Made by a program: the position numbers and the translations under genes. The notes below the pieces were generated by a model. That model saw only the letters and a list, made by a program, of their open reading frames with translations. It was not told the origin of the DNA and did no database searches. From Saccostrea cucullata (Eukaryota), in assembly GCF_032062105.1 (NCBI RefSeq), contig NW_026927339.1, positions 186,001 to 250,000 of the forward strand: DNA of 64,000 bases, read 5' to 3'. Shown here in pieces: positions 7,515-64,000 of the stretch. How positions within the stretch are numbered: the stretch's first letter is position 1; the number at the start of each line of letters is the position of its first letter.

Positions 7515-9624
7515 CTACCAAATATGTCCATAATTGGTGCTATTCCTTTTTCTGTTCTGTTTGCTGATACCTGATGATCGGAAAGTTTTGAAAGACTGAT
7601 TCATTGGGATTCCGGAAATTTCTACACCGCCACTAGTATCTGTAAAGTCATCAAACTCGTCACTATCAAAATCTCCTTCTTCCGGGCATGTCAATTCCTG
7701 CGATACCTTTAACTTCCGGACCAGGCTGTAGCGCTTTTTGGGTTTTGGTTTACTGTATACAACTTCCGGTTTATCTGTTTCAATATTATCTGTGGACGGT
7801 GTAGTTCCCCTACAATTCTGAGCTCTTGGGGGTAGAATGGGGCTGGTTGAGGTGTTATGCTCAAGGTCTTGATACCTTTCGCTATACGTAGAATGCTGGT
7901 TCTGGTTGGATGGCGTGACATAATCTTTAAAAAAATGAAATTTGTTTATAGAGAAAGTTTCCGTAATTGATTAATTTTCTGTAACTTTATTTTTATATTT
8001 TATTATATATAGATATCGCTTAGGTAATCATTTTCCATGTTTTAAATTCTAGTTGTGATTTACCCAATGCCTCGTTTTTCTTCTGTCTGCCTTTACTGAT
8101 AAAAATAAAAAGAAACAAATTAAATATTGATATGAAAACTGAAGTCTTAAATTTTCAACATTCAACCGCAGTATTTTAATGTAAATATCATACGATTTTG
8201 TTTGGCAAACATTGACGATGTTTTTCCTATAAATGTTTTTAAAGGATGCAATTAAAGACTTACCAAACCTTACACAGGAAAAAAAGTCCAACACAACTAC
8301 ATGAAAGGATAACAAGAAGAAAAGAGGCTCCAGCAATGATCCATAGCTTATCCTTCAGGAAGTCCTCTATCTTTTTGTCAATACTGATATTGGTAAAGTT
8401 TGTATTTGTATCAGTACTGCTATTCTTCAAACTTGGAGTTTCTTCAGGGTTACTCTCTGTATTTAATTGTATGTAAAAAAGAGATGATTAAAAAATGAAT
8501 ACAATGCTGGCATACAAATGTTGGCCTGTTTTGAAATTATGCGAATATTTCATATTTCAGATTATCACAACATTGTAAATTTTATATAATTTTCACATTT
8601 CTAACTTATAAAAATATTTTGTCCCCTTGTAGAACATTATAGTGAAACTTTACAATTATGACTACAGTTGTTATTTCTATTCTATTTTGTAAAAAAAAAG
8701 CTGGTTTAGAACATCTGTATATAACTTCAGTATAGTATATAACATTTTTATCTGTGTTTGAACACATGACAGGTCACAGCTATAGACTCTACAAATCAGT
8801 GAATAAAGATCTTTACTACATGTAGTGCCTGGTTCCAAATTACCTGAACATATCCCTGTTGATCTGTTACAACTTTTTAAACATTTTATTGGACATTCTT
8901 TCTTACAGCCTTTCCCATAATAGCCTTCAGAACATGTTCTACTACAGTTGATTCCTTGTGTTCCAGAAGGACATTCTATAAAAGACGGTATATACTTCTG
9001 CCAATACTTTTTAAATGTATTGTCCTAGGATATCATCTCACTATTACTCCTCATGAACTAGACATAAGATGCAGACAATTTTTGATATACTTCTTGCTTA
9101 TCGATTGATTTTTATTCAAGTAACAAAGGGCATAAAAATATAAAACGTAAAAGGATATGAAAAGGAAAAAAGATGTTTTTTTTTGCTTTCCTCTAAAACA
9201 GTTATGTATTTAAGTTAAACCGTGTGGTGGTTCATTAATTTTAGTTATTGTCCTTGATGTAGTTTATACAATGTATAGATAATTTTGCTTTATATATCTT
9301 AAATAAAAACAAAGAAGGAGACTGTGTTTTAGTTGATTTGATTCTTCATCACAGATTCATTTTCTATTCCATGAAAAATCTTTTTTTTTTCTTGTATTAT
9401 TTGATAATTGATGAATGTTACCTGTACATAAATCCTTGTAGAGGAAATAACCAGGGCAGCATTTGCCAGAACTGAAAAATAACAGTAAAAGATTTATTAA
9501 TACCTCCAGCTAAAAGCGTGAATTCCACCTACAAAAAAGGATTTCCTTACCCACACATGTTTGGATCGTTTGTGACAGCCAGATGGACGACACGTAGGAT
9601 CAAAACAAAAAACAGAACGTCCAT
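7515..9624 (-). CDS. R2: complete mini MEGF10/Draper/Nimrod-like type-I receptor, 296 aa. Exons 9624-9551, 9471-9422, 8975-8844, 8456-8264, 8095-8064, 7924-7515
   Basis: 891 nt in frame, all introns GT-AG. MDVLFFVLILRVVHLAVTNDPNMCG|SGKCCPGYFLYKDLCT|ECPSGTQGINCSRTCSEGYYGKGCKKECPIKCLKSCNRSTGICS, then a Ser/Thr/Asn stalk and TM LWIIAGASFLLVILSCSCVGLFFL, basic juxtamembrane KGRQKK, and tail DYVTP..YQDL..PILPPR..VVYSKP..KRYSLV..FDSDEFDD..SFKTF..TNYGHIW*. An in-frame upstream ATG is at 9630. Confidence 0.92.
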
Positions 9625-9660
9625 TTTCATCTTTTGTAATTAAAATTTATTTCAGTGACT

Positions 9661-9714
9661 GCTTCCTGGTTTATCCTAATTCACGACAGATTTATATTTT
9701 TAACAACCAGGAAA
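9661..9714 (-). promoter_or_regulatory. Paired opposite-orientation GGAA (ETS-like) motifs just upstream of the R2 start codon; equivalents upstream of other paralogues
   Basis: Plus-strand TTCCT/CAGGAA pairs: 9661/9707 (R2), 14646/14678 (R3), 21814/21864 (R4), 28105/28153 (R5), 42672/42735 (R7, second site CGGGAA). Single sites at 2814 (R1) and 35208 (R6). Confidence 0.5.
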
Positions 9715-10659
9715 AATGTCCTTCCCTCTTTAGTTGATGCAATTGAAGTATTTATTACTATAGAATATTTCAAAAGTATATATCCTGAAAACATTAAATT
9801 GAAACATATATAATGTTTAAAAAAGATTTTGCAGTACAAAAACTATACCATATTTCACATGTACACTTCCTTCAAAAACATGTTCCGTATGAAATGAGTT
9901 TATTAAGTATACTTTGTCTAGTAATTATACGTAATAGTCTTTATTTATCCAGGATCAGACATTAAGTATTAAGCTATCTATAATTGCTGTTCTGCATTGA
10001 ACCGTAATTTCAATCGAGTGTTGACATATGAAATTTAGCATTTTTAAATAAACACACAATATTAGAAATACAATCACATTTCATACAAAAAGACTACAAA
10101 ATGATCTTGAGAGAAAAAAATGTAATTTAAATGTTGACAAATGAAATATATAGAGATAACGAACAGCATTTAAGACCAAAAGTCCACAAAACAATACAAA
10201 ATAGGAGAGAGTAAACACAGACCTTTAAATCATCAGAGGTGGGGTGGAGGAGTGGGTATCCCTTTCCGACCGGTGTGCTCCTTGTCATGATCAGAAAAAA
10301 CGAAAATATCCGTCGTCAAATGGACTAACAATTAGTATGAAAAACATCATTCAGCATTTGACTCAATGATAAATTGTAATATCTTCGATGTCATTGTATA
10401 GACCAAAGAACTCAAGGAGTAAAACTTGATAAGATTCATAGATTGAAAAAATACTCAGAATTGACGGTTATATGGGCCAAAAGACGAAAGGATAGTCAAA
10501 ATTAAAATTTATGCTATAAAATAAATCGCTTTATATATTTCATCATTTGAATATGACAGTTCATGTGTTTCTTTTGTGTCATTACTGATTATTGATCATG
10601 TAGCACATTTAATTATTTCATGAATTGACTTAAGATTTTTATTATTATTATTTGTTTGT

Positions 10660-11495
10660 GTCCCTCGCAAAGTTGCTAAATCTCTGTGCGTTTCAAAGGG
10701 ACATTGATTTTGAATCAATGCTTTGATTTTGGCAATATCTTGAATTTGAAAAATGCTATAGTACGACCCTCGATTAAGCGACAGAGACTTGACACCATTT
10801 TCGAAGATGAATTCTTAAATTACAGACCTGTTTTAATTTGCCATTTCTATCTAAAGTATAAGAAAAAGCGGTGGCATCCAGACTTGAAAAAGACCTAATC
10901 TTCATGACCACGAGCAGTCGGCCAACCGAAATAGTCACTTTACAGAAACTGCCCTTCTCCTGGTGCACCATGATATTACATCTGCATTAGATAAGAATTC
11001 ATTGTTGATGTCGTAATGCTCCATCCCCTGGCTGTATTCGATTTAATTGTTCATAATATACTAATCAGTCGAATCGAATACGCGTTTGGTATCACAGAAT
11101 CGCTGCTTTTATGAATAGAGTCTTATGTATCTGGTCGACGACAGCAAATTGCGGTAGGGTCGAAATTCTCGAGAGAGTTCCTACTCCAGTTTGGTGTACC
11201 ACAGTGGTCTGTTCTAGAACGTCGTCTATATTGTATGTTTTAAAACCCATCGGAGACATTGCCGGAGACATAACATGTATTATCATTGTTATGCTGATGA
11301 CACACAGGTTTAACTGATTATCAAATCGAAGGACAGTTGGGACAACATTGCGAATAGACTTGAACGGTGTCTGTCTGATTTACAAGACTGGATGCAAAAC
11401 AACATCCTTAAGTTGAACCAGTATTAGACTGAACTCATCATCGTTACCCAAAAACGTATGGCAAATGAGTTTTCAGGACGTAAACTCACTCTTGG
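10660..11495 (+). mobile_element. Degenerate L2/CR1-group LINE reverse-transcriptase fragment
   Basis: Frameshifted RT motifs: NYRPV..FLSKV*EKAVA, TETALL, FGVPQWSVL, YHCYADDTQV, DWMQNNILKLNQY*TELII. Confidence 0.85.
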
Positions 11496-13874
11496 TTTGC
11501 TTTTCTTATTGTTTTTATTTCATATTTGCTCTTTATGGTTTCCATACTTATTATCCATTATCGATAGTGCAGTAGAAGTTCACCCAACCGAAAATGTCCA
11601 ACAGGGGCTAACAAATACGATATCTTTGAAAAATGGTTCGGGTAATTGGGCGGAACGTGTAGAAAAAGTCATGAAATACCGCAAGTCTTAGAATTCCAGA
11701 GAAAACGTAAGACTTGGTTGAAATGAATGTTGGGCAAGACATAGGTAATTCTTCATGTGTTTGCAATTATGATTACGAGTGCTTATTTTTTCAAAAAACA
11801 ATGCTAGTACATTCAAGTTTGTTTCGTCGATGCAATGGTGAAACTCACGTCAGACAGACGGTTGATAGGTAAATGTTAAGTTATATAAGATTTTTTATAG
11901 TTGATTTTATATAGAAATCCAATGAAAACTGTTACTTTCAGAAGCAAGGTTGGTTTTGTGACGTAAATGAGCAGTGCTGGTGGTGACAAGGCGATTATTA
12001 CTGAACCTCTGAAATGTATTGAATAATCATCCAAAACAAATGGATATTTCATGTTTACCTTACTTACTAGTAGAATGGTACTGTCATCAAATGTTAGATA
12101 CAGGAAGGAAAACGTCCAGTTTCCAAAATTTGTTCATTATTTTGTAATATATTTTGAACTCATTGGCAGTACTTACTAAAGACAATCATGAGGCGCAAAA
12201 TAAATTGTTTAGTATTGCATGAATAGTAAGATTTGCAATCCTGTCAAATCTCGGAACGGAGATTTCAGTAGTTACCTTTATATATTAATATACGGTGATA
12301 CGTCACTCTGTATCTGATGGTGCATCCATCTTAACAAACTAAATAGCAGAATTTCCTCCATTGTTCTGGTATTCTGGAAGCTTTTTATTATTTTTGTACA
12401 AACTCCAGCATATAATGACTATCGAGCAAATGTTGTGTTTACTTATATTCAAATTCCATTTAGAAATACCCTCCGTACAAAGTATTGTCTACAGTAGCTA
12501 TGGTGATATAAAGTTGGGGGTGAATTGTGCTTAGTTAGTTCTATGGCACATATTTTAATCTGTTGATGTGTATAAAGTTCTGTCGAAAATATTAGATTCT
12601 GATTGTTCAACTTTCTGCAATCTCAAGACAATTCCTTAGTTGCAGATTGCGGTATGAATTACTCCATGTCTGGAAGAAACATTTAGTTTTTATATATTTC
12701 TTTCTGGACATCTAGTTGGAAAAATATTCCAATATTTCCTATATCACTTTAATTCAGCTACGATGAATTTAAGGTTTTGATTTCGAATTAACGTAATTGC
12801 CAAAGATTTCATACGCATCAGTATCGTCAAACGAAAAGTAATATTATTTAATGACGAAAACATTTCATTGTGTATCAAACTATTAAATTATTTTGATTTG
12901 TTCAGTTTTGATTTTTTTTTTGGCACTGAAATTATAGTCCAACAAGGATATTGTACCAACTGCAGGATTTGCGAAATTTTAAGTATAACCGAGACAGGTG
13001 ATATCTTCAATCAACTGAGAGACATAAACTTCGTATGCAAGTGATAATTGTATAATGCAACATAAATATGATAATGACATGAGCAAACTTGACGTCATCA
13101 TGTTTATCAGAATGTATTGATGTAAGCTGACGATCAATATTTTTTTTCTAATTATAGAACAAATGTGTAAGTCTCTAAAGTGGTCTTTTTCTAGGTGTAT
13201 AAGAAATCAACGTGGAATTAAACGGAATATTTTGTATCACTAAAGCGTCATCGATATATTTAAAAATTACGTTGAATATTACACCAAAGGACTTCTTCTT
13301 TATATGTTTCTTTTATAAAATAGATTCTGCTAAATAGGAATACGAAAGGAAGTCTGCTACTATGACGGCACATTTCGAATACGTGGTTTTTCAACAGATA
13401 ACATCAACATTGGAAAACGTATGTGTGTGTCCAGAATGTATTTTAATGAATCAGTTTTGCAGAGGACCAAGGCCATGATTTTATAAATTTTGTAAATTCA
13501 TAAACTTAAAATGTTCTTTTCTATCGCGAAGAAGTTGTTTTTGATGTTTCGACTTTTAACAGGGAATGCCCATTCCTCTATGGTGTATGACCCCACTTCT
13601 GAATGTTTTGGAGGTCCGTCTTAGCTCTGCTCCTATTGAATTGTTTCATTGCTCTTCCTACATGTATTTCTTCTTTAATGTCCACATCCCATACCCCTAG
13701 GAAGACTGTTATGCTGCTGAAGATAAGCTTCAAATACTGACAGAAAAACCCTTTACACTTCCAGAAAAATGTAAAAGAAAGACTTATTTCGAAGACTGCT
13801 CATATACTAGTATAACAATCAAATTCTCATAATATATGATTTACTGCAAAACCATTCATATGATTTTATAATAC

Positions 13875-14614
13875 CTGGACAATACTCTGTTGCGCTGTTA
13901 CAATTGCGTACACATTCTAAAGGACACCTCTTCCTGCATTCTCTTCCATAATAGCCTTCATTACATTCCTCACCACAGTTGAATCCATATGTTCCAGGAG
14001 GACATTCTATAAATGATAATATAATGAAGTATATAGTTTTGCCACTTTCTTTCTACCATCTACTGAGTATTTGTAAGGTCCGTTTTACGGTTTAGATAGT
14101 AGAACTAAAGCGTATCGTGAGACAGAAACGCGCCTAAATATTAAAGTAAGATAACATAATTATTAAATGGACTTTAATTTTATGTGGCAAACAACTTAAC
14201 ACAAACTTACCTGTACATATATTGTCATTTAGAAAATAACCACTGCAGCAAGATCCAGAACTGAAAAAAAATTAGAATCTTTTATTGCTTTTTAACTAAG
14301 TGAAATATATGGCTATAACGAATAGTATTCAAGCTCAAACGTCCATGAAAAAACAAACGGACTTCCAAAACATAAGAAGTCGAATCAGGTGCCATGGAGG
14401 AGTGAGCATCTCCTGCCGACTGATCACATCCACCGTGTGCTACTTGTCATGATCAAGGAAAAACGGAAAAACCAGTCTACAATTCAGTGTGTTAAAATGC
14501 TAATTGCAGAAGTAAAACCTACAACGATTGTTTCTCTTACCCACACTTGTTTGGATCATTAGCTGTAGAGACATGGATGATATTTAGGAATGTAACAAAA
14601 GATAAAATATCCAT
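13875..14614 (-). CDS. R3: ectodomain-only paralogue (signal, CCxGY and EGF exons). Exons 14614-14541, 14260-14211, 14006-13875; no TM or tail exons found before R2
   Basis: MDILSFVTFLNIIHVSTANDPNKCG|SGSCCSGYFLNDNICT|ECPPGTYGFNCGEECNEGYYGRECRKRCPLECVRNCNSATEYCP. Exon sizes 74/50/132 are identical to R2 and R4. No stops, all 12 Cys present. Confidence 0.88.
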
Positions 14615-36786: not shown

Positions 36787-39700
36787 TTACAAGACTTCTG
36801 TATACTGTCCACTGCGTTCTGTGGCCATAGGAGTCAGGTACTGCCCAGTAGAGGAAGTCAAATGCTGGCCAGTAGAAGGGGTCAAATACTCTGACTGGTT
36901 CTGTAATGTAAGGCCTGTATATGTTGATGATTTCTCTTTCTTAGAAACGCCAGCATGGTCTGACTGGTAAACAGCCTGATAATCTGCAGATAATAACATA
37001 CTTAAAAATATACTGTATAAGAGTTATATTTACAACAACAACATGAATGGTAAACTTAAAGAAATAACGAAAGGATGCTCCAATATGTACCTCTCTGGGA
37101 AGTTTTCCTGTTGTATTTCGTTGAGAGGAAAGTTGTATAGCTACATTAATAATATAAAAATCTTCTTATTGACAATTCAATTCATTATTTGTATTTATTA
37201 CATACATAGTTATAAATACAGAATTTTTGCATATGTGATATGCCTAACATCATAATAGTCGTATCGACTGATATGGATCTGCGTGGCTGATACGGATCAA
37301 TATTATATAAGAGGATTATTTTCGTAGTTTTCATTGGCTGAAAGGACGTCACATGACATTCCTCCTTTCGCGATAGCGACGCGAAAGCGCGTCCGCAGAA
37401 AATGATATCGCACGACACGCCGTTCGGTTGCACTGAAGTTACGTAGAACGTGACGTCATAATAAAAAAAACGTGAATCTAACCATTGTGACGTAATTACA
37501 GCCAAGTCCGTTGTGTTAGGACTGTGTCGGTGCATTCAATTTGAGTGATTATATAATATAAATATTATGGACTTCAGTGAACGGTCAATATGTGGTTATA
37601 AGGACTCATGGCAATTGATATTGACCTCAGACACAGAAAATGATAGCGACCTCGCAGGCTCGGTCGCTATCACTTTCTGTGTCTTCGGTCAATATCAATT
37701 GCCATGAGTCCTTATAACCACATATCGACCTACACTGAAGTCCATAATTGTATAATATTACACCCCTAGTAAGTGAAACCTTTACAAAACAGTATCTTGT
37801 GATAATACACACATAATTTTGTGTTCACATTCTCATAATTTTTAAATTATTGGTCTTTGAAACAATAAGCTACATATTGTCAGTAGGTAGTGCTTGATTA
37901 TATATTTGTATTTTTGTCAAGTTAAAGTGTGCTGTACATTATTACTAAGTATGTTATAAACATTATAAAACATCTCGTACCTTTTCTACATCATATCCTG
38001 TAAGCACTCGACCAATATCAGCCCTCGGGCCTTCGACCCCCTGACTGATATTGTTGTCTCGGGCTGATATAGGACGTGGCATGGAAAAGGGGTATGTATT
38101 ATTCTCTATGTATTCCTTCTTTTGTGAATCTATGTCAACATTTCTTGATATAAAATTAAAAAAGAAAGTTTGATTTGTACATACGCTTTTATTGAGCTCA
38201 AAAGTCTGTTTGAACTGTACAAAAGAGAGAGAATATACGCACCTGGTAACAACAAGTAACAGAAGAACCGCTATTACAACCACTATATGTGATGCCAGAA
38301 GTCCCAGAATAAAACTTGTAATGTTGCTTAACTTCTTATCTACGTCACTGCTGTAAAAAAGAAAGACGGATATAGCTGTTTAAGGTCAAGATCTAGTAAA
38401 TGAAAGATGCCTACAGATTTATCAAATTTGAGAAACAAATTCCTTTAATGATGCTTTATAAATAAAGATTGGCTAAATAAGGTGTTTCGGGTCATAATTT
38501 GTAGGTAAACAAGGTGAAGAACCATATTTTAAACAGTCATTTTCAATATAAAATTAAGAAAACCGATCATGAATATGGTTTTTTTTTTCATATTCGACAA
38601 AGGAAATTTATCCAGATTGCCTACAGTGTCTCAGAAAACGGTAATTTGTATGTTCACGGTCTCTTCTTTAAAATAATGTCAAATTTAATATGGGTATCCA
38701 GATTACTTTTCATATAATTTCAAATTGAATGCCATGAAAATACTCTTTTTTCTACATAATTCTGCTACAGCCGTAAAGTACGGAAAGAAAGTTGAAATTG
38801 ATTATGACGTCATCATGGATCTAGCACCACAAAATCAGTCTAAAGTCATTTACTAGATCTTGACCTTAATTACGTCTCTACTTCAAAATTTAAGTCTTAG
38901 AAACTAGATTCTTTAAGTTGTACTAATTTAACATATGTTTTTCCTATCTTTAATGTATTTGCAATGTTATGGATTCTAAAAATAAACTTTTATAAAACTA
39001 TTACATAACATTTTTCTTATTGCTAACCTTCTCTTTCACACATTTGCAATGAGGGCTAGAGAGGGATAAAATATTATTTGATTACATTTAAAATAACTTT
39101 ATCTGGTCACAAAAGCTTACATATTATACTTCTGAATCCGTTGACCTGTTGGAAACGTCGATGTATTTTCCTCGTACGCCTCTTCTGATTAAGAAAGCAT
39201 GTAGTTAATTCGAATATGTAAAAATAAAAATGGTATGAGGCAAATTACGTATGAAAGGAATTAAAGTTTTACGCATTAATAATGCAAAAAAAAAAAACAA
39301 TTACGCTATTAGCAGCTTTAAAATTCTACTTAAATTTACATGTACATGTACATCATGTAATACTATGGTAAACCTTTCTTAGTTATCAAACAGAAAAACT
39401 TTCCCTACCGAATCATTATTTTTTATGCGCCCGTATCGACAAATCAGAGGCGTATATTGTTTTTGTCCTGTCTGTTTGTTTGTTTGTCTGCAAACTTTAA
39501 CCTTCGTCATAACTTTTGAACCATGAAAGATAGAGACTTAACATTTGGTATCCTTACTACACTAGTTAAATTCTTACAATGATACCAAGGTCATTGACTT
39601 TGTGACCTTGACTGTGACCTATATGCTAAAAATAACGTCTTTGTCTGCAAAATTTAACCCTCGTCATAACTTTTACGCCTTGAAAGATGGAGACTTTATA

Positions 39701-51270: not shown

Positions 51271-54200
51271 AAAAACTTACATCTTTAGAAATTGTTTTTT
51301 TTTTTGAAAGATGCCTTAGCCCATTTAAGCAACTGGGAGACATGAACTCTATATACAGATGACAAGGGTATTTATCGCTACATACGTAATAGAAGTTGAC
51401 ACTTGAAAAGAAGTCATCAAGTTTATCATAAACCAGGGTTGTAAGGTTATTACGGTCTTATTCTAGTACAATATCCAAATATCAAACAGAGTATCACTCA
51501 GTGGTATCTTTTATTCCAAGCTCATTGAGATATATCGAGTCGACATTTGAATGGTAGTGTCTATAGTTAATTGTTAATACCTCATCGATATACCCAAATA
51601 TCAAATCCAATTATGAAAATGATTTGTCAGATTCAGTATCTTTAATTTCCAGTTCAAATGGATATATCGAAATTAGGTTGTAATAAAAATTAATAATGTT
51701 AATTGAAAATCTAGCTGTTATTCTATTTTTCGGCGGTATTGACCTTGTCAAATCAGTATTGCATCAATAATAAATACTTGTGTAATCTTTTGGCAGGGAA
51801 AGCTTACTCCTCCTAGGCATGTAGTCCCATCTCTAGGTTTCAAAGAGCTCGTGTTTATCTCCTTTTCAAAGATTCGATATCTTTACTAGATTCATGAGAT
51901 TGATCACTGTTCGTTACGTTTAAAATTTGCACATAAAACAGCCATGTTTGTTCGATGTAAAGAAATTCATATGTGCAAAATAATTTAATGCGAGTATTAA
52001 ATGGTCGAATTGACATAATTTTGTATTTTACTTCCGATCTCTATTGGAAAAAGCATTGCTGTTTGCAGTGTTTATAATTAGCCACACAGACAACAGCTAC
52101 ATGTTCCATCAAAATGCAGAAGGTACACATGTTCTTTTATTATTGGTTTTTGTTCAGCAGCATAAGGTAAGCAAATGCTACAAATTTTGCATCTGACATA
52201 GTGCATAATAAGTGCTTTCTGTGCTCTAGTACCAAATATTTGATCTGAAAATTGGTCTGACAACTTTTTTACTCTAAATGTAACTTTATCACTTTAGACT
52301 AAGATCTCATTACTAACATTCTGTCAAATAATTGTGGATGAGGACGGGTGGGAAGATTTTGATAAGGGAGATAAAGATACAGGGCGTCTGTGGATTTCCC
52401 TTTTTGGGTAACATTGATAAATTCTGTCCTGAAAAAAAATAACAGGATTTGATCGATTTTTTACCTCGTTATTGCAGTTGCACAAGGATTTTTATTTGTT
52501 ATGTGGTTTTTGTTCTCTTTAAACGACAATCAATGACGATAATGTTTTAAATTCTAGGATGTTTGCTATTAAAACAGATGAAATTATAAATTATTCAGTT
52601 ATAAATAATATGCCCCTTTTAATGTAAAAAAAATAATATTATAAATAAAGGACATTTTCATATGTTATGTGTTCGTCGTAATATACTTTGAAATAAACAG
52701 TTATGAGAACATGTATTAAGTGACGATGTCAAAAAATAAATGTGAAGATGAAGTTCATTAAATTGTAGTTGCAAAACATGATCCACTACTACAGAAAAAG
52801 TTACTCCAGACTAAAAAAAGTTAAATAATTCCTTTTGATAACAGAATGCCCAGTAATCGAAGTTTTGCACAACTTATTAATCTGCAATATACGTAAACAA
52901 TCAAAAGTTTCTAACGATCGTGGAGATATTAAATCATTTAATAGATTGATCTACTCTTCTGTTTTCTTACACTACTTTACAAGTCAACGAAGTCACATAT
53001 GATTTGTTTGTGTAGCAAGATAATGCACGTGTTGATTAAATGGTCAAATGCGTTGCATAAAAGCATATCAACGCCAATGCATCGTAAAAAATTTTTATTA
53101 AATAGGGACACAGTTATAATTTTTGAGTGATTAGTATAATAGATGCTACGAATATATTTGCTGTTTTATTTTCCTGTGACCTAATAGATGTTTCCCCTTG
53201 TCGGAAAAATGTAAACATTAAGTGTTTATTTCTTGATCAATAAGATTCTCTGCTATATTATGGTAAGCTTTACATTTTGATTTTCGGAGTTATATTTTCA
53301 GTTGTATATCGTCTTGCATAACAAAATGGCAGACATATGTATGCGAGGAACATTATAAGTGCAGAGTGACAGTTATGATAATTTCTAAGGCATCTATGTT
53401 TGTTCCATCATCCCTGCAGTGAATATGTTGCTCTTTTAATTTAGATTATAGGAAAAATCTTCTGAATAGCAAAGTACTTAGTTACTAGGCTGTTGAGAGT
53501 CTTCAGGATCGACTAAAAGTCCACCAGCAGATGCCTCAACCAGGGATAATAATATGTAAATGACGAAAAACATAAAAAGAAAAATAATTGAATTTTGAAA
53601 TTAAACTCAAAATTCAAAATAAAACTTTTATACCTGCTGTTTATATCTCCCAACTTATTCGATACTAAAGAGTATGCTCAGCGTACGACCAATTGAGAAC
53701 CCGAGTCAGACTACTTACAGATAAGTTGATCTTACATGGATTTTAATAACCTTTCAAAGTCAGACTTTAATGAATGATGTGGCCTTTATAAGGTATATGA
53801 TAATATAACCATTAATTGGGACGTATTTAGGCTGACTTGTTTCACATCAATTGTTTTAAAGACCTTTGTTTCTTTATACTTTAAATGATTGTGTATACCT
53901 CATTAATATATTGGTCTCACTGCAGGGGTGACGTATCAACAGGGGATATTATCTCCTCTAATGCACCTGCTCCCATCCCTGGAATTAAAAACAAATCATT
54001 GTGTTTATAGAAATGTTAAAATTACAATAATGCACTTACGTAATATACCACGGAATATAAAAATCACGATCGAACAGTAGTCAAGCTCAAAGGTCCATTG
54101 AATACATTCAGATTGAAAGCAGACAAAACATGAAAATGTAAAATAATCAAAGGTGGGATCAGGTGCCATGGAGTAGTGAACATCTCCTGTAGACTGGTTA

Positions 54201-57050
54201 CGCCCGCCATGTGATCTATATTATGATCTGACAAACGGAAAAAATCATTCGTATACAATTTGGTATAAAAATAATGGTCTAACAAATTGTATGAAGAAAG
54301 TCATTAAACATTTGAGTTAATGAAGCATATAAGTCATTTTTCGGGAAATTTAGCCTTTTTAAAGAAAATTAAATCTGATTATTTACCAAAACCGCTGATA
54401 AACGTCAACTAAAATTTTTCATTGCATCAAGATAAAAGAGTGTCTAACGCAACGACGTGCACCACCACCACCGCATCACGTGACTTCTTTTTATAGCCAA
54501 AATTTTCCTTAATAAAAAAGCGACCAGAACAACAATACCCCAGAGTTTAATAATTTTATTCTTTGAGTAAATAATGTAGTTGAATAACATCTATTTTGCC
54601 TAAAAAGTGCTGCTAGAATCCCACTGTCCCGGCAGTAAAATAATTATTCCACACATTCGCACGAAACCTTACCACATGTCTTAAGTTTTTAACCTATGAA
54701 CCGAGATTTTTCGCAAACCGTGCTTAACTTGGAATTCTAGCAGCATTTTCCAAGTATTGTAGGGTGCAAACTTTCCATCTGTACAAATTTTATGTTTTGA
54801 AATATACAGCTTATTGTTGTTCTGTTGCAATTTCTTGTCTCAAATGACAGAGGAAAGGTCGACCGGGATACGAATATAGCTGGCTGTCTCTGAAAGAGAA
54901 TAAAATAAATGAAAATAATTTAGCATACCTGTTTTATTAACTGAACTCCATATGAATATCACAAAATATTCACGATATTTGCTTTTAAACTTCATTTTAT
55001 GTATCTTTGTTCATGCCGTCATAGCCAAATTCTCTTTACACGACATGATCTATTCCCGATCAATTCCCAAGTTACTTGATGTACAATATGACGTCATCGG
55101 TGGTAGATTTTAATCAAAATGACAGAACACCTCATAACGAAATAATATGTAGTCCCATCGCTGGATTTCTAGGGGTTAGTAGTGTTTATCACCCTTTCCA
55201 CGATTCGATATCTTTACTAGATCCATGAGATTGACCATGTTCGTAATGTTCAAAATTGAACATAAAGCGGCCATTTTTGTGATATAAAGAAATGCCTGTG
55301 TTCAAAATTACTAAATGCGAGTATTAATGGGTCGAACTGACATAATTTTGTATTTTACTTCCGATCTTTATTGGAAAAAGCATTGCTGTTTGCAGTGTTT
55401 ATATATAGTCTCAAAAACAACAGCTACATGTTCCATCAAAATGCAGAAGGTGCACGTTTTCTTTTATTATTGGTTTTTGCTCAGCATAAAGTAAGTAAAT
55501 GCTACATTTTTTGCATTTGACATAGTGCATTATAAGTGTTCTCGGTGTCCTGGCACCAAATATTTGATCGGCAGATTGGTCTGTCTGACAACTCTTCTAC
55601 TTTAAATATAACTTTATCACTTTAGACTAAGATCACATTACTAACATTCTGTCAAATAATTGTGGATGAGGACGGATGGGAAGTTTTTAACAAGGGAGAT
55701 AAAGATACAGGGCGTCTGTGGATTTCCCTTTTGGGGTTACATTTATACTTTCTGCCCTGAAAATAATAGCACGATTTGATCGATTAATGACCTAGTTATT
55801 GCAGATGCAGAAGGATTTTTATTTGTTATGTGGTATTTGTTCTCTTGTAAACGGCAATCAGTGACGAAATGTTTTAACTCTAGGATTTTTGTTATAAAAA
55901 CAAATGAAAAAATGAATAATTCAGATTATAAATAAAATACCCCTTTAAATTCAAAGGAAAAATAATATAATAAATGAAGTACATTTTTTTATATGTCTTG
56001 TGTTCGTCTTAATATACTTTGAAATAAAGAGTTATTTGCCCCTCGGTGACAGGAAAGCCCTGGAGTGTTATGACACTCGATGCTGAACATGTATTACGAG
56101 ACTATGTCAAAAAACTCTAAATAAATATGACGAATATTAAGTTCATATTTTCGTTGCAAAACATGATCCGCTACTAAAGAAATAAATAACTACTGCATAC
56201 TAGAATTTTTGTTTTAAAATAGAAAAATAATTCTATAGATAATATAATGCCCAGTAATCGCAGATTCAGGGGGCATATAGTTTTTGCCCTGTGCACTCGT
56301 CTCTTTGTCTGTTTGTTTGTCTGTAACACCTTTTACATTGCCCATAACTTCTGACTGATAAGAGCATACTTCAGTTGCATATTCCCTTTCTTGGGTAAAA
56401 ATATTTTGATCTTTTTCTTGGTTTTTGGTCTTCTTTTAAAAACCGTAAGCCTTGTCCATAACTTTAAAAAAGTTATTGCTCGAGCTCTAATATTTCACAA
56501 GTTTTTTCCTTGTGATAAGCGTTTCTTGGAAGTTGGGTACGAATATTTCTGACATTTTCACCTTGATTTGGTTGTTGGGAGGGACTTCATATTTCACAAG
56601 TGCATTCCTTGTGACAAGTCCATCACTTGGATACAAATAATTTTGACCCTTTTATTTTGACCTTGGAGTTTGGCCTAATTTTAAAAACATTTATCAAATG
56701 AGCATAGAGAACAAGACATGTCAAATGGTTCAATTGACTGTATGAGAGTCTCTGTTTATGCACTACTAAACGTTGTAAAAATAATCTGCACTGTGTAATT
56801 TTGCACAACTTATTAAGCTGCAACATATATAAACAACCAAAAATTTCTAACAATCGTGGAGCTATTAAAACAATGTGAATAGATTGATCTATTCTGCTGT
56901 TTCCTTACACCACTTTACAAGTCATTGAAGTCACATATAATTTGTTTGTGTAAAAAGATCTTTTTTTCAGCTCAAGGTCCTGCTCCTCTTTAAGTGATGT
57001 ATTGTCTTCAAAACAAGCAGAAAACACACACACAATCACACGCACAGAGC

Positions 57051-62167: not shown

Positions 62168-64000
62168 TTAACTTATATGATAATAATAACCATTAATTGG
62201 GTTGTATTTAAGCTGACTTGTTTCACATCAATTGTTAAGACCTGTGTTTCTTTATACTTCAATTGACTGCGTATACCTCATTAATACATTTGCTCACTGC
62301 GGGAGTGACTTATCAACAAGGGATATTATCTCCTCTTATGCACCTGTTCCCATCCTTGGAATTAAAAACAAATTCTTGTGTTAATAGAAATGTTAAAATT
62401 ACAATAAAGCACTTACGCAATATACCACGGAATATAAAAATCACGATCAAACAGTAATTAAGCTTAAAGGTCCATCGAATACATTCAGATTGGAAGCAGA
62501 CAAAACATGGAACTGTAAAATAATCAAAGGTGGGATCAGGTGCCATAGAAGATGAGCATCCCCTGTAGACTGGTTTCGCCCGCCATATGATCTATATTAT
62601 GATCTGACAAACAGAAAAAATAATTCGTATACAATTTGGTATAAAAATAATGGTCTAACAAATTGTATGAAGAACGTCATTAACATTTGAGTTAATGATA
62701 GATTGAATTTAAAGGCCATTGTATCAAACAAAAAAGTTACAAATGTAGGCTTAAAACGAGGTTGACGAGGTTCGTGTTTTGGTCTTATTGTTTAATCAAT
62801 ATCAGTTTGTCTGTAAGTTGCTAAAAAGCTCCTCGTAGAAATTATTCGTAGAGCAAAATGGGAGACATAAGCTCCATAGGCAGGTGCTACTGATAGTAAA
62901 TACATAAATAAGGAAGGTTGACAACAGAAAAATTGAATTAATCACTTTTATCTAAAAATGTTATTGTTAGGTTACTACAAAGGTCTTTATCAGGTAAAAT
63001 ATCTAATTATGAAACAGATTTGTAAGATTCTGTATCTTTTAGTTCGAGTTCAAAGGGATATATCAAAATAAGGTACATGTAGTAATAAAAATTAATATTG
63101 TTAATTGATAAACTAGTAGCTATACTGTTTCCTTTGGCCTGATCTAGTCAAATCAGTATTGCACCAATAATAAATGCTTGTTTGATCTTTCGGCAAGGGA
63201 TGCTTACTCCTCCTAAGTATGTAGTCCCATCTCTGGATTTTTAGGGGCTAGTAGTGTTAAGCTCCCTCTCCACGATTCGATATCTTTACTAAATCCATGA
63301 GATTGATCATGTTCGTAATGTTCAAAATTGAACATAAAACGAAAATTTTGTGACTTAAAGAAATGTATGTGTTTAAAATTACTTCATGCGAGTATTAATG
63401 GGTCGAATTGACAGAATTTTGTATTTTAAATTACTTCCGATCTCTATTAGAAAAAAAAAATCAACAGCTACATGTTCCATCAAAATGCAGAAGGTGCACA
63501 TTTTCTTTTATTACTGGTTTTTGCTCAGCATAAAGTAAGTAAATGCTACATTTTTGCATCTGACATAGTGCATTATAAGTGTTCTCGGTGTCCTGACACT
63601 AAATATTTGATCTGAAAATTGGTCTGTCTGACAACTCTTCTACTTTAAATATAACTTTATCACTTTAGACTAAGATCACATTACTAACATTCTGCCAAAT
63701 AAATGTAGATGAGAACGGGTTGGAAGTTTTTAACAAGGGAGATAAAGATACAGGGCGTCTGTGGATTTCCCTTTTTGGGTTACATTTATACTTTCTGCCC
63801 TAAAAATAATAGCACGATTTGATCGATTAATGATCTAGTTATTGCAGATGCAGAAGGATTTTTATTTGTTATGTGGTATTTGTTCTCTTGTAAACGACAA
63901 TCAATGACGAAAATGTTTTAACTCTAGAATTTTTCTTATAAAAACAAATGAAAAAATGAATAATTCAGATTTAAATAAATAAAAAAAACCTTTAAATTTT

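Follow-up and report, generated by a model that had tools for sequence, protein, structure and literature searches.

Organization of the R3 gene

The window analysed here is a stretch of 64,000 nucleotides (nt) from Saccostrea cucullata (contig NW_026927339.1, hereafter C9476, of a 1.17-Gb assembly). It carries on its minus strand a tandem array of genes for small EGF-like receptors, R1 to R7, with a common layout: a signal-peptide exon, an exon with a CCxx[YF] motif, an eight-Cys exon, a stalk and transmembrane (TM) exon, and a cytoplasmic tail with Tyr motifs. One member, R3, is a gene of four exons that splices to a terminal exon of its own and lacks both TM and tail. The R3-R2-R1 unit is repeated left of the window as R3′, R2′ and R1′, and the array recurs in colinear order on contigs C14731 and C11087, where aligned blocks are about 66-91% identical. 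These two contigs overlap end to end, at 98.7% over 5.1 kb, and C11087 brings one more R2-type gene. This second copy may be a very divergent haplotype or a segmental duplicate.

The features of R3, in window positions, are:

14687-14678, minus strand: conserved upstream motif TTTTTCCTGG, with a TCCTG core (GGAA core on the opposite strand)
14652-14647, minus strand: second conserved upstream motif AGGAAG, with an AGGAA core
14614-13424, minus strand: whole R3 gene, four exons, cysteine-rich product
14614-14541 (74 nt), minus strand: coding part of exon 1, with the ATG at 14614, the predicted signal peptide and the first Cys
14260-14211 (50 nt), minus strand: exon 2, with the CCSGY motif (residues 29-33); its joint to exon 3 is found in runs X1, X2, X3 and X4
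14006-13875 (132 nt), minus strand: exon 3, eight-Cys EGF-like module, phase-1 donor
13874-13717 (158 or 161 nt), minus strand: intron 3, containing a read-through stop (13821-13819) and the acceptor used by RefSeq (13736)
13713/13716 to about 13424, minus strand: terminal exon 4, with tandem CAG-CAG acceptors at 13716 and 13713, a TAA at 13711-13709, then the 3′ untranslated region (UTR)
13649-13560, minus strand: decayed fragment of a common dispersed repeat, within the 3′ UTR
13447-13442, minus strand: likely poly(A)-type signal ATTAAA, 18 nt ahead of the furthest contig end at 13424
13423-9630, no strand assigned: R3-R2 spacer, repeats and unique DNA without TM or tail exon

An initial annotation had described R3 as an ectodomain cassette with its own start, a conserved pair of upstream GGAA motifs and three clean exons, followed only by debris of transposable elements. 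The start at 14614 is confirmed and the motif pair is indeed conserved, since the TCCTG and AGGAA cores are unchanged in 7/7 aligned paralogue upstream regions; on sequence grounds, TTTTTCCTGG is likely a promoter element. Exons 1 to 3 are also as described, with GT-AG introns throughout and a phase-1 end. What had escaped attention is the fourth, terminal exon, situated precisely in the presumed debris. Prediction of the signal peptide relies solely on a hydropathy of 1.7-2.0 across residues 1-15.

R3 transcripts and their terminal exon

Six runs (X1 to X6) were used as assembled contigs; they were guessed to be RNA, and they skip the GT-AG introns of R2 and R3. The complete table of joints covers X1, X2, X4 and X5 over 8200-14290 and holds 9 rows. 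Assembled contigs lose rare splice forms, their depth was not used for ranking genes, and an uncovered stretch, such as the spacer or intron 3, is weak evidence unless a contig joins across it.

Spliced R3 contigs are present in 5/6 runs, so that the transcription of R3, on which the initial annotation depended, is borne out. Exon 1 is joined to exon 2 in X1, X2 and X3: the transcript has an exon 1 of its own, and the gene has the motif pair conserved in all seven upstream regions. Exon 3 is joined directly to exon 4 in 3/4 runs, via 13875->13713 in X2 and X5 and via 13875->13716 in X4, while a piece from X1 ends at 13719 with 10 unaligned letters, which fits the 13716 acceptor. Two contigs of 557 and 563 nt span exons 2, 3 and 4, exon 1 being their loose end, and exon 4 is also touched by pieces in X1, X3 and X6. 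Exon 4 contributes Ala or Ala-Ala before the TAA, giving proteins of 86 or 87 amino acids (aa) with 12 Cys.

The contigs are blind to the true transcript start: the 563-nt X4 record has 106 letters ahead of 14261 and would reach about 14647 if ungapped. At the other extremity, contigs end at 13424, 13429, 13431, 13443 and 13464, which gives a weak hint of a poly(A) site. The repeat fragment in the 3′ UTR is 72-80% identical to 14 copies found within the 124-kb context and has many copies genome-wide. In a 153-nt X1 contig on exons 2-3, 14261 is oddly joined back to 13942 through 7 intervening letters, which may be a library artefact or a partial duplication.

Two other ends have been proposed for R3. 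Reading through the exon 3 donor gives a 103-aa frame, open in DNA to the TGA at 13821-13819, as the initial annotation had noted. RefSeq describes the same gene as XP_062612372.1, ‘multiple epidermal growth factor-like domains protein 10’ [Saccostrea cucullata], whose first 85 residues are those of R3 and which continues through the 13736 acceptor to 105 aa, without TM; this MEGF10 name is too grand for a one-module protein. That either form is the main product seems extremely improbable, even though both frames are open, RefSeq annotates the 13736 acceptor and the R3 copy on C14731 would yield 87 aa through read-through. The interval 13874-13720 is uncovered in 4/4 runs, and the depth of the intron-3 bin equals the exon-only expectation in each (0.37, 1.58, 1.25 and 0.44), so that neither the read-through nor the 13736 acceptor is seen. 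Moreover, both forms add an odd thirteenth Cys to the 12 of the spliced forms. The frame and stop of the 103-aa form therefore exist as claimed, and it is the spliced 86-87-aa form that is found in its place.

Search for a membrane exon downstream of R3

In agreement with the initial annotation, we found neither TM nor tail exon between R3 and R2. Phase-1 frames behind every NAG acceptor in 13874-9630 included no hydrophobic one, the same scan recovering 4/4 control TM exons. With leave-one-family-out TM and tail profiles, the R3-R2 interval stayed empty (best E 0.91); the withheld TM exon was recovered for R2, R4 and R5 (3/4 intervals, none in R1) and the tail in 4/4. The first profile run overlooked the TM exons of R6 and R7, which means that very divergent TM exons can escape a profile; the hydropathy scan recovered that of R6. 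A TM exon of R3 within 13874-9630 was thus rejected by both approaches, and the diverged R3-specific TM exon that would have contradicted the initial annotation was not found between 9.7 and 13.8 kb.

The initial annotation had also asked whether other haplotypes carry TM exons of R3. On C14731, three hydrophobic frames in the R3-R2 interval passed the scan, two of them behind weak acceptors, and none matched the TM profile. Altogether, none of the four R3-lineage copies carries a TM exon of the family type.

Does R3 splice onto R2?

The initial annotation proposed that R3 could serve as a variable 5′ cassette spliced onto the TM and tail exons of R2, as in clustered protocadherins. The exons of R2 are:

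9624-9551, 9471-9422 and 8975-8844, minus strand: exons 1-3, own signal peptide and ectodomain
8456-8264, minus strand: exon 4, stalk and TM; joint 8844->8456 in 6/6 runs
8095-8064 and 7924-7515, minus strand: exons 5-6, cytoplasmic tail with Tyr motifs; joint 7924/8064 in X1, X2 and X6

The premise of matching phases is correct: R3 exon 3 ends in phase 1 and is compatible with the R2 acceptor at 8456 across an intron of 5,418 nt, giving on paper an open hybrid of 296 aa. The junction search that the initial annotation had called for, made here in the contigs, turned up no such splicing. The 13875->8456 joint is absent from the complete 9-row table of four runs and from the 15 rows listed of 58 in a further comparison, and R3 exon 3 joins an exon 4 of its own, with a stop and an ATTAAA. 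R2, for its part, has its own start and ectodomain exons, and contigs run unbroken from its exon 3 past 8456 in 6/6 runs. A common second exon arriving at this acceptor is thus unlikely, since from the way assemblies are built it would tend to break contigs. A search for longer proteins containing R3 (185-2000 aa) returned none at E<=1e-8 among 7 candidates, though this search was weak.

Two RefSeq models do combine exons of different paralogues in the array, and neither is the proposed junction. XP_062612381.1 links R2 exon 1 (window 9630-9551) to R2′ exons 2-6 (C9476:164.4-162.0 kb), 31 kb apart, while isoform X1 of the same gene instead uses exon 1 of R2′. XP_062573657.1 links exons 1-2 of the C14731 R3 copy (36.2 kb) to R2′ exons 3-4 (0.7 kb), 35 kb apart, although the bypassed R2′ exons 1-2 are intact. 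The C14731 allele of R2′ is a mosaic: its exon 1 is nearer to R2 (6 vs 11 differences), its exons 2-3 nearer to R2′ (8 and 14 vs 17 and 43; contrast with exon 1 p 2.5e-5). Judged by sequence, such mosaic alleles can explain XP_062612381.1 on paper and leave XP_062573657.1 unexplained, and cross-paralogue models of this kind are probably misalignments of mosaic alleles.

In the chelicerate sDscam genes (PMC4835542), cassettes splice to common exons and cross-cassette forms needed nested PCR; contigs could miss such forms here, and a minor R3-R2 hybrid may lie below their detection. Even so, we regard R3 as a cassette for R2 as very improbable. The broader proposal, that the array is a mollusc counterpart of the sDscam and protocadherin clusters, is hardly less doubtful. 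Phase-matched paralogues would there swap exons in RNA over at least 30 kb, in the way drawn by the two RefSeq models, an R3-type N-terminus being either secreted or placed on the TM and tail of another gene, and a combinatorial repertoire would be built atop exon-level gene conversion. Were cross-paralogue splicing real, it would give molluscs a new way of diversifying their receptors.

Relatives, fold and history of R3

Searching 1.84 billion representative sequences gave 175 matches, 150 of them listed. Among 121 proteins of at most 400 aa that were analysed, 53 combine a CCxx[YF] motif with a start resembling a signal peptide; 32 of these 53 were scored with a TM and 21 without, the latter including R3 itself and one evident miscall. 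Ten relatives were looked up, and the TM-less ones among them carry the labels Ostrea edulis, Magallana gigas, Crassostrea angulata and S. cucullata; one is the short isoform of a protein that also has a longer, TM-bearing isoform. As far as sequence can tell, TM-less relatives recur across oysters. We built a tree of 42 rows and 67 columns from 35 of the 53 relatives, six models of the array and one extra isoform, with the reservation that isoforms or incomplete models may be among the rows. On it, R2 is the sister of the R3 module (97/89). One ancient secreted subfamily was rejected, the TM-less label requiring 16 changes, at least 9 of them forced by supported branches.

The R3 profile matches the N-terminal EGF-like domains of SCARF1 (E 7e-11). 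AlphaFold2 gives the 105-aa RefSeq form a predicted local distance difference test score of 85-95 over residues 21-90; the best structural match is again SCARF1, at a level that is not significant (Foldseek E 0.06, Z 3.3). In a Pfam scan no family passes, EGF_PEAR1L (E 0.051) falling below the cut-off, and R3 has neither a strict nor a relaxed match to the NIM repeat CxPxCxxxCxNGxCxxPxxCxCxxGY. The literature listings searched for this oyster receptor family showed no paper on it.

The R3 lineage counts four copies: R3 and its C14731 counterpart are intact, R3′ carries a frameshift and a stop, and an exon-1 fragment lacks the ATG. R3′ aligns with R3 over 14267-11596, exon 4 included, so TM loss is older than the duplication that separated R3 and R3′; only these two have the exon 4 acceptor region. 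In the C14731 counterpart, exons 1-3 are intact; beyond them come an inserted repeat and, 3.6 kb on, a second exon 3 that is degenerate but in phase. We suppose that R3 derives from an R2-type receptor copy in which, ahead of that duplication, the stalk/TM and tail exons were lost and a short terminal exon was acquired.

R3 and the C14731 copy differ at 48/255 nt (19%) and have kept the reading frame, 12/12 Cys and 46/73 other residues. Neutral simulation gives such an outcome in 0.5% of cases or less. Exon 3 of the C14731 copy (C14731:35698-35567) is nearer to R2-type exons than exons 1-2 are (Fisher p 4e-5), and nearer to them than to exon 3 of R3. By this comparison, it appears to have been converted toward the R2 type, which would fit a decoy held similar to its receptor through conversion.

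A predicted soluble decoy and its rivals

Taken together, these data describe R3 as a stand-alone gene for an 86-87-aa protein with a 12-Cys EGF-like module and a predicted signal peptide, without TM or tail. It would be secreted and could act as a soluble decoy for the neighbouring Tyr-motif receptors, a reading that we adopt tentatively and at slightly below an even chance. Messenger RNAs with their stop in the last exon escape nonsense-mediated decay, and that of R3 should do so. A mature chain of about 68 aa with six predicted disulfides would then be released and, by analogy with LAIR-2 and NimB1, might bind the neighbours' kind of ligand without signalling and so compete for it. Of the soluble alternatives raised by the initial annotation, decoy or opsonin, what stands is a transcribed and spliced gene ending without TM; the predicted length of 103 aa does not, and the function proposed here is drawn from analogy.

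Several observations weigh against this reading. TM-less forms make no clade on the tree, so that the state is labile. R3 has 39/67 mature residues in common with R2 and equally 39/67 with R4; a shared specificity is therefore not apparent in the present haplotype. The C14731 copy lacks exon 4. Over 85 codons, the ratio of nonsynonymous to synonymous substitution rates (dN/dS) between R3 and that copy is 0.78, a value that cannot be told apart from neutrality, and Cys retention is inflated by conversion from functional receptors, which weakens the Cys argument. Finally, all three direct exon 3-exon 4 joints come from a single study (P2), and the identity of the runs as RNA is a guess, albeit for runs that skip GT-AG introns.

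Part of this evidence favours another view, in which birth-and-death evolution left R3 behind as a truncated receptor copy that is transcribed and has acquired a terminal exon, without any selected function. Besides the dN/dS value and the scattered TM-less forms, the R3′ copies are dead, exon 4 is partly repeat-derived in addition to being absent from C14731, and other array members are damaged (R4 by a tail stop, R1 without TM exon). We nevertheless consider this view rather unlikely. Two copies whose coding DNA differs by 19% have both retained the reading frame, splice sites, upstream motifs and 12 Cys, spliced contigs recur in five runs, and the complete receptor R2 gives a dN/dS of 1.01 on the same test, R4 giving 0.29.

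Alternatively, R3 could be an opsonin or a bridging molecule that coats microbes or dying cells and passes them to a membrane receptor, in the manner of secreted Nimrod B proteins. A CCxGY motif and an EGF-like fold are common to R3 and phagocytic receptor families. NimB1 is reported to inhibit uptake, and NimB2 and NimB4 to promote it in an opsonin-like manner; in Anopheles (PMC4073527), AgNimB2 is a secreted protein of seven modules encoded beside the TM-bearing AgEater, the two having once been merged in annotation and then separated by rapid amplification of cDNA ends. R3 has one small module, no evident second arm and no NIM repeat, and this possibility appears distinctly unlikely.

Neighbouring genes of the array

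R2, R4, R5 and R6 have each their own TM exon, and R2, R4 and R5 their own tail. The R2 model counts 296 aa and its tail terminates in a TxYxxI motif, which we take to be of the immunoreceptor tyrosine-based switch motif (ITSM) type. Two divergent forms of R2 exon 5 are present in X1, and the R2 tail varies at many letters across runs, which suggests that several alleles or paralogues are expressed.

R1 (2706 to about 1000, then 990 to the left edge) has exons 1-3, with a GC donor at exon 3, and no TM exon was detected; its region contains a minisatellite (305-484) and a tail exon left at the left edge of the window. It is possibly a second TM-less copy or a dead one. In R4, a TGA (within 19212-19189) shortly ahead of the terminal Tyr motif gives a protein of 252 aa without this motif in the present allele, and the C14731 copy reads through at that position. 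R7 (42660-36790) and R6 (32280-30620) carry different tails with several YxxL/V motifs, and by analogy the array, with its mix of tail types, resembles a paired-receptor cluster.

An R7 intron contains a near-perfect palindrome of 206 nt (88%) at 37553-37758, probably a miniature inverted-repeat transposable element, and three copies of a 0.8-1.1-kb element with 80-89% identity are found within 51605-56266 and 62174-63998.

Significance

The result on R3 is a modest one: its gene model is corrected, and an oyster receptor family that is uncharacterised and evolves fast gains a soluble member. Soluble members beside membrane-bound receptors are familiar in immune receptor clusters, and R3 was already annotated without TM, its last exon being corrected here. 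The soluble module of 68 residues should be easy to express and could offer a small handle for finding the ligand of the family. With two colinear copies about 66-91% alike, exon conversion and repeated TM loss, the array has the look of paired receptors evolving under pressure from pathogens.

Comparison with known systems

The array echoes clustered protocadherins and sDscam by its tandem 5′ units, own upstream motifs and matching exon phases. It differs in that each unit here has its own 3′ end, in place of the shared constant exons of those systems; R3 shows neither of two features that define them, splicing to shared constant exons and cassettes without a 3′ end of their own.

MEGF10, CED-1 and SCARF proteins have many EGF-like repeats, a TM and a cytoplasmic tail. 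SCARF1, MEGF10 and CED-1 share with R3 a SCARF/MEGF-type EGF-like disulfide module, a likeness for which fold support is weak, whereas R3 has one 12-Cys module and no TM.

NimB proteins (NimB1, NimB2 and NimB4 of Drosophila, AgNimB2 of Anopheles) resemble R3 by their signal peptide, CCxGY motif, EGF-like modules and lack of TM. The Nimrod definition, a signal peptide and an N-terminal CCxGY (PMC4073527), describes R3 as well, its hydrophobic N-terminus being known from hydropathy only. In contrast, NimB proteins have NIM repeats and several modules, while R3 is a single module nested among oyster receptors as a recent loss.

LAIR-2 and LILRA3 are soluble relatives of signalling receptors in human inhibitory or paired families, LAIR-2 being described as a secreted decoy (PMC8225389, PMC10679719). 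They have Ig folds unrelated in sequence to R3, and a shared ligand has been shown for them whereas for R3 it is presumed. Like LAIR-2, R3 is a separate gene encoding an ectodomain alone among signalling paralogues.

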